NCBI RefSeq assembly: GCF_036507355.1
Contig: NZ_AP027877.1
From: Escherichia coli
GTDB lineage: Bacteria > Pseudomonadota > Gammaproteobacteria > Enterobacterales > Enterobacteriaceae
Reading direction: 5' to 3' (one strand)
DNA: 64,000 nt
Both the position numbers and the translations under genes were made by a program. Below, piece after piece: positions 26,387 through 26,679 of this stretch. The notes under the pieces were generated by a model. The model was not told the origin of the DNA. It worked only from the letters and a program-made list of their open reading frames with translations, and made no database searches. The number at the start of each line of letters is the position of its first letter. The first letter of the stretch is position 1.

Positions 26387-26679
26387 TGTATTTTAAAGAA
26401 TAAAAATGAAAATATTTTATCTTATTATTTGTGTGGTGAATGTTTTTGTTTTGTTTAATTGATATTTTATATTTATTTATTCCTAAAAATAAACGATAGC
26501 TTTTTATGTGAAAATGTAACGCAATGATTTTTTTTAAGATTTAAAATTGGATGCGCTATTAATATATTATTCGTATAATTTTATTGTTCGTATTTCATTG
26601 TATAATCCTTCCTTCAAAGTTGTCGATTTTGATACATCAAGATTTTCTTTTTAATGTAATTTTTTAAATGGAGTTTTTC
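26387..26679 (+). promoter_or_regulatory. Extremely AT-rich upstream/promoter region of the fimbrial operon
   Basis: ~290 bp of near-continuous A/T runs ending at GGAG before the lpfA ATG. Confidence 0.5.

Follow-up and report, generated by a model that had tools for sequence, protein, structure and literature searches.

The A/T-rich leader of an Escherichia coli lpf1 fimbrial operon and its probable silencing by H-NS

Described lpf systems and the identity of the locus

The regulation of the fimbrial operon lpf1 has been described in Escherichia coli O157:H7, where four papers (PMC4288034, PMC3219716, PMC3897749, PMC5357955), all of which cite Torres 2007 and Rojas-Lopez 2011, state that the lpf1 regulatory sequence is bound and silenced by H-NS and that this silencing is relieved by Ler. 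The analyses presented here concern a 64-kb stretch of E. coli DNA (the window), in which an A/T-rich leader lies between yhjX and lpfA1, and we argue that this leader is very probably the cis-regulatory region of a chaperone–usher operon of the lpf1 (O-island 141) type, silenced by H-NS and relieved by an anti-silencer. The minimal lpf1 regulatory region is reportedly 79% AT, and within it are said to lie the promoters P1 and P2, a pair of upstream H-NS ‘silencer’ sequences and three sites for Ler. Published work on the O157:H7 orthologue, not on this allele, is the source of what we say about binding and silencing by H-NS and about anti-silencing by Ler, while composition, anatomy, orthology and element conservation are results of the present analysis.

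The locus is the lpf1/O-island 141 operon (PMC5357955). Its gene order is yhjY-yhjX-lpfA1-lpfB-lpfC-fimbrial protein (lpfD)-lpfE-eptB-tRNA-Pro, and in RefSeq the annotation of near-identical loci reads yhjX and lpfA1-lpfB-lpfC-fimbrial protein-lpfE-eptB, in agreement with the names yhjX and lpfA given in a first-pass annotation of the window made from the sequence alone. O157:H7 lpf1 (lpfABCC'DE) occupies the same position between yhjX and eptB. Measured over the full intergenic gap (from the yhjX stop codon, ending at 26335, to the lpfA1 ATG at 26680), the leader is 344 bp in the window and 343 bp in O157:H7 and is 97.4% identical between them, the 9 differences in 344 positions including T8 in the window versus T7 in O157:H7 at 26528–26535 and G versus A at 26631; both TATAAT hexamers, the conserved upstream box and the Shine–Dalgarno block described below are identical. 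The first-pass annotation had proposed that the A/T-rich DNA is the H-NS-silenced promoter of a fimbrial operon carried on an island, and since the leader, with the same flanks, is orthologous to the O157:H7 region published as silenced, we uphold that proposal.

Of 5426 complete E. coli genomes, megablast detected the lpf1 junction in 395 and sensitive blastn in 422; in every matched genome it is chromosomal, with yhjX and lpfA1 annotated on its two sides. The top complete-genome matches are non-O157 strains (98.8–99.0%), the closest having come from baboon, chicken, pig and water, and the O157:H7 strains match at 97.0–97.9%. Because the closest complete genomes are non-O157, Ler may be absent from the source strain; the 64-kb window does not take in LEE (the enterocyte effacement locus).

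The orthologous lpfABCDE operon of Salmonella enterica (LpfA 72% identical) has a leader of 508 bp with 35% GC, which shares with the window the box (as ATTCTTAAT), a box-to--10 spacing of 120 bp and the Shine–Dalgarno block; its -10 element is 79 nt away from the ATG. It differs in that its neighbour is yhjY and not yhjX, that the leaders are only ~33% identical overall, and that the 5' untranslated region (5'UTR) of Salmonella lpfA contains a significant hairpin (z = -3.25), the window being without such a hairpin. Other promoters that are silenced by H-NS and depend on an anti-silencer, those of the LEE operons (with Ler), bgl and virF, offer a wider comparison (in part after PMC3219716): extremely A/T-rich upstream DNA, a -10 element that is strong and a -35 element that is weak, silencing by the spreading of H-NS and relief by a DNA-binding antagonist would be common to them and lpf1. 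Unlike those systems, the lpf1 island has no regulator gene in or adjoining it, and the antagonist would therefore be encoded elsewhere in the genome.

We suggest the following layout and mechanism. An island-borne terminator would end yhjX transcription and be followed by ~215 bp of ~80% A+T DNA carrying one position-fixed box; further right would lie sigma-70 elements (a strong -10 and a poor -35), an unstructured 5'UTR of ~67 nt and a strongly conserved Shine–Dalgarno block. H-NS would nucleate on the A/T-rich DNA and spread across the promoters, so that the operon would be silent in ordinary growth, and lpf1 expression would require an anti-silencer displacing H-NS, namely Ler in LEE-positive strains and presumably another factor in strains without LEE. 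Some of our own results weigh against silencing by H-NS: the Lang-type high-affinity H-NS motif does not occur in the leader above dinucleotide shuffles, the predicted curvature of the leader is no higher than that of such shuffles, and, because the -35 elements are poor, conservation is what the promoter assignment draws upon. Scans of the leader for IHF, CRP, Lrp, Fur, sigma-54 and Fis consensus sequences likewise gave nothing above dinucleotide shuffles.

Composition and conserved elements of the leader

The features discussed here are collected in Table 1. The 293 bp of the leader are set against a window of 50.9% G+C (A/T content 79.9% in the leader, in agreement with the 79% reported for the minimal lpf1 region, and 49.1% in the whole window), and no other 293-bp stretch of the 64 kb is as poor in G+C: equally low stretches make up 0.04% and all overlap the lpf1 leader locus, and GC falls below 33% nowhere else. 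There are 18 runs of at least four A or T bases in the leader, and over the full intergenic gap the GC content is 23%. The extreme A/T richness over ~290 bp before the fimbrial operon noted in the first-pass annotation is thereby confirmed, and both A/T strings that it quoted are present, the first from 26379 (8 nt before the leader as given there) and the second at 26466–26493. The edges that it had placed also hold, with the terminator-like hairpin and T-run of yhjX directly before the left edge and the lpfA1 ATG, preceded by its Shine–Dalgarno sequence, immediately after the right one.

Table 1. Coordinates of the features of the lpf1 leader and its surroundings in the window
Feature	Position	Strand	Basis
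A/T-rich leader: upstream regulatory DNA, promoter(s) and 5'UTR of lpfA1	26387..26679	+	20.1% GC; 97.4% identity to O157:H7
Rho-independent terminator-like hairpin, GGAGG/CCTCC core and T6	26358..26384	+	Terminator scan; fold
Conserved upstream box ATATTTATTTATTCCTAAAAATAA, core ATTCCTAAAAA at 26479–26489	26466..26489	+	12-leader alignment
First perfect TATAAT, candidate second -10	26574..26579	+	Sequence, alignment; overlaps TAATTTTATT at 26576–26585
Conserved -10 TATAAT, candidate main lpfA promoter	26601..26606	+	TATA invariant in 12/12 aligned leaders (columns T266 A267 T268 A269)
Antisense promoter-like site TCGACA-18-TACAAT	26597..26626	-	Promoter scan; 10/12 matches
Translation initiation region TAAATGGAGTTTTTCATG	26665..26682	+	GGAG 26671–26674, lpfA1 ATG 26680; invariant across genera
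lpfA1-lpfB-lpfC-lpfD-lpfE operon under the leader	26680..32162	+	5/5 ORFs intact; open reading frame (ORF) list, RefSeq annotation, LpfA homologues
Left junction of the lpf1 island	26329..26335	+	Comparison of window, O157 and K-12 MG1655
Divergent haplotype tract	Window 26266–26740; ZF8-1 L008 2838–3310		Sequence comparison

We compared the leaders of 14 lpfA loci, from E. coli (three leader types), E. whittamii, Escherichia sp. E2748, E. albertii, a Pseudocitrobacter metagenome-assembled genome (MAG), Enterobacter sichuanensis, Salmonella enterica, Citrobacter freundii, an Enterobacteriaceae genome, Chimaeribacter and two metagenome contigs. A noncoding leader of 298–508 bp with 22–36% GC precedes lpfA at all 14 loci, and the gene 5' of it differs from locus to locus, being yhjX, yhjY or, in other Enterobacterales (L011, L013, L014, L016, L017), plsB, dnaN, the phd antitoxin gene, an eptB-like gene or a MoCF gene. 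Since the leader is kept at 14/14 loci despite these varied neighbours, we regard it as part of the operon module, and judging from sequence, operon and leader appear to travel as a unit. The leader sequences themselves are 33–65% identical where lpfA is 70–98% identical; in the Pseudocitrobacter MAG, for example, lpfA is 93% and the leader 50% identical. One locus in the set, that of Escherichia sp. E2748, has T6 for T5 in ATGAAAAAGGTCGTTTTT(T)GCC within lpfA (L018 2479–2500), which shifts the frame of the signal peptide and led the gene caller to choose a later start; this lpfA is either a pseudogene or a case of homopolymer slippage.

Against a mean column identity of 39% in an alignment of 12 leaders, five elements stand out: the terminator T-run, ATAT..ATTCCTAAAAA (26466–26489), TAATTTTATT (26576–26585), the -10 hexamer TATAAT and TAAATGGAGTTTT (26665–26677). 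The second of these, the upstream box, is the top conservation peak 5' of the promoter. In the window its first base lies 121 bp upstream of the -10, and the box-to--10 spacing is 120–122 bp in 9 of 10 leaders, with that of E. albertii, at 131 bp, approximately one helical turn longer. The 9-mer TTCCTAAAA occurs in 7 of the 14 leaders (maximum 6 and mean 4.0 in 200 shuffled sets), and the box columns at 80% identity or above number only four (ATTC). We infer that the box is a candidate protein-binding or nucleation site; it may coincide with an H-NS or Ler site already footprinted in O157:H7. It is conceivable, though rather doubtful, that it is instead the site of an undescribed and widely conserved lpf regulator or anti-silencer that acts in bacteria without Ler; if so, a box-binding factor would account for lpf activation in LEE-negative E. 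coli, Salmonella, Citrobacter and Enterobacter. None of the known transcription-factor consensus sequences named above explains the box. An RcsAB box was also considered and rejected, its right half TATTCCTA matching by eye and the full 14-mer being more than four mismatches off in the window; no link between RcsB and lpf regulation is apparent in the titles and abstract openings of the papers listed by a search.

The hairpin that follows yhjX comprises 9–11 pairs followed by T6 (-13.7 kcal/mol, z = -2.1) and has the make-up of a Rho-independent terminator; a hairpin and T-run are found at the equivalent position in all homologous leaders. It is the predicted terminator of yhjX transcription and would shield lpf from read-through. 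At the other end of the leader, the conserved -10 hexamer lies 63–85 nt from the ATG in 10 leaders, from which we infer a transcription start for lpfA1 near 26613 and a 5'UTR of ~67 nt. The -35 region of this promoter matches the consensus poorly and was not called in the promoter scan; lower-scoring promoter-like sites were reported at 26540–26570. The upstream TATAAT is confined to the window/O157-type leader, other leaders having TAATTT in its place, and it could be the second published lpf1 promoter, as far as its position and sequence suggest. The -10 of the antisense promoter-like site overlaps the sense -10 in the symmetric sequence ATTGTATAAT, and its -35 is unconserved beyond this leader type. 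An in-frame ATG at 26668, 12 nt 5' of the lpfA1 ATG (MEFF-MKK...), gives LpfA as 178 aa and not 174 aa in some annotations; because its counterpart is followed by an in-frame TAA in Enterobacter and is out of frame in E. coli CP053258, we argue that it is not the lpfA1 start.

Curvature and alternative explanations

The first-pass annotation had described the leader as curved. According to a wedge model (Bolshoy-type parameters), the mean predicted bend of the leader ranks among the highest 3% when all stretches of that length in the window are compared, and its local peaks come close to the 99th percentile. This mean bend is, however, equalled or exceeded by 24% of the leader's dinucleotide shuffles, and the 11-nt A-tract periodicity is weak. 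The bend thus follows from composition, and curvature as a special property of the leader was not borne out.

Considering that most of the leader evolves fast beside a much better conserved lpfA, and that known transcription-factor consensus sequences are not enriched in it, one might view it as a neutral, mutation-biased A/T-rich scar of the island junction with a basic promoter only. We consider this improbable, since the length and A/T richness of the leader are maintained in every genomic context, since discrete conserved islands are present and the spacing of box and -10 is held constant, and since published experiments on the O157 orthologue (as cited in PMC4288034 and PMC3219716) show regulated silencing.

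Salmonella lpf expression has been reported to be phase variable, and the window has a run of eight T residues where O157:H7 has seven, features that could be taken to indicate that the leader is a phase-variation switch working by fim-like inversion, pap-like Dam/Lrp methylation or slipped-strand changes in a homopolymer. A review states only that chaperone–usher fimbriae as a whole are phase variable (PMC7886704). Each form of such a switch nevertheless fits the leader badly, and we hold the idea to be very improbable. The inverted repeats are imperfect (70–92%), their arms are A/T-rich and of low complexity, and the promoter is bracketed by none of them, in keeping with the first-pass annotation, which had seen no obvious invertible-switch repeats by eye; neither between yhjX and lpfA nor next to the leader is there a recombinase ORF, which argues against a fim-type switch. 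The sequence GATC is absent across 26200–26777, the nearest lying at 26778 inside lpfA, which argues against a pap-type switch, and Lrp consensus matches in the leader are not above shuffles. The T7/T8 difference tracks lineage and is not hypervariable (the O157 records span 304 nt, the others 305 nt). A search of the leader for tandem or direct repeats found none. Bistability generated by H-NS itself may occur.

That the leader conceals a gene for a small protein or for an RNA, structured or antisense, an idea raised in the first-pass annotation for small ORFs and antisense RNAs and to which seven ORFs of 14–35 aa (including an ATG-started hydrophobic 18-mer at 26406–26462) and the antisense promoter-like site might lend some colour, is exceedingly unlikely and was not sustained, since the ORF peptides are retained only in leaders of 97–99% identity and score at most about one-third of their self-score against ZF8-1, E. 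whittamii and other leaders (where lpfA is 79–98% identical), since Rfam 15 gave no match at the gathering score (best E = 2.5, 11–17 bits versus thresholds of 39–100), since neither the window (z = -0.04) nor O157 (z = +0.6) has a 5'UTR of more stable fold than its shuffles, and since the antisense -35 is unconserved.

With regard to RNA structure, a conserved 5'UTR hairpin between the -10 and the Shine–Dalgarno block was considered and rejected, each homologue having a different inverted repeat. Compared with 300 shuffles, folding of the 5'UTR reaches significance in no leaders but those of E. albertii, Enterobacter and Salmonella (z = -2.9 to -3.7); a second pair of z values is -0.7 for the window and +0.85 for O157, and the G-to-A change removes the O157 stem. 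In Salmonella, Enterobacter sichuanensis and E. albertii (L010, L006, L005) the 45 nt that follow the conserved -10 hold the hairpin, for example CAGAATGCA...TGCATTCTG, in which Salmonella and Enterobacter differ by a U-G change; the leaders of the window and O157 are without it.

Island boundaries, leader haplotypes and significance

K-12 MG1655 is without lpf, and comparison with it places the right island junction near 32232 and the left junction within the end of yhjX, which reads ...GAGGCGCAT GGC TCC CTT TAA in K-12 MG1655 and ...GAGGCGCAT ATT TAG in the window. Because the left junction is inside the last yhjX codons, island DNA takes in the stop codon of yhjX along with the terminator and the entire leader. 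Relative to K-12 the island status of the operon holds; horizontal acquisition, put forward in the first-pass annotation, is debated, as Wurpel 2013 (PMC3559732) argued that Lpf-type clusters at this chromosomal position are ancestral.

Within E. coli we find two leader haplotypes. The window/O157 type occurs in ~395 genomes and a second type, ~65–70% identical to that of the window, in 27 genomes. In strain ZF8-1, which carries the second haplotype, lpfA and lpfB are 98.1% and 99.9% identical to those of the window, and the divergent tract sets in ~70 bp inside yhjX, at its 3' end, and peters out among the codons for the lpfA signal peptide. To judge from this pattern of divergence, a recombination swap of a regulatory cassette between leader haplotypes is suggested.

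The structural genes also vary. The window lpfD (30548–31627) is 87.5% identical to the O157:H7 allele, the other lpf genes being 97–99.7% identical, and 99.4% identical to the PapRG-04-4 allele; this divergence points to allelic replacement or diversification of a single subunit gene. Pseudogenes in lpf depend on the strain: lpfC, intact in the window, is split in O157:H7, where it has an internal stop (L002 9684–12257), and lpfD of PapRG-04-4 has an internal stop as well (L003 12273–13328). In E. coli CUWW06 an IS1 lies between the A/T-rich leader and lpfA1 (L009 3281–3978), and a second IS1 disrupts lpfB.

The H-NS/Ler regulatory logic of the lpf1 region is already known from the O157:H7 orthologue, and because H-NS silencing and Ler anti-silencing have been published for that region, the leader described here adds no new biology. 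The additions are comparative and modest, namely that an A/T-rich leader accompanies the operon across genera, that it holds a few short constrained elements, including a box of fixed spacing, and that E. coli carries two haplotypes of it. Two very different leaders beside near-identical structural genes amount to a natural experiment in regulatory divergence. Finally, considering that it is by Lpf fimbriae that Peyer's patches and M cells are bound in the case of enterohaemorrhagic E. coli (EHEC), adherent-invasive E. coli (AIEC) and Salmonella, escape of the operon from silencing bears on colonisation.
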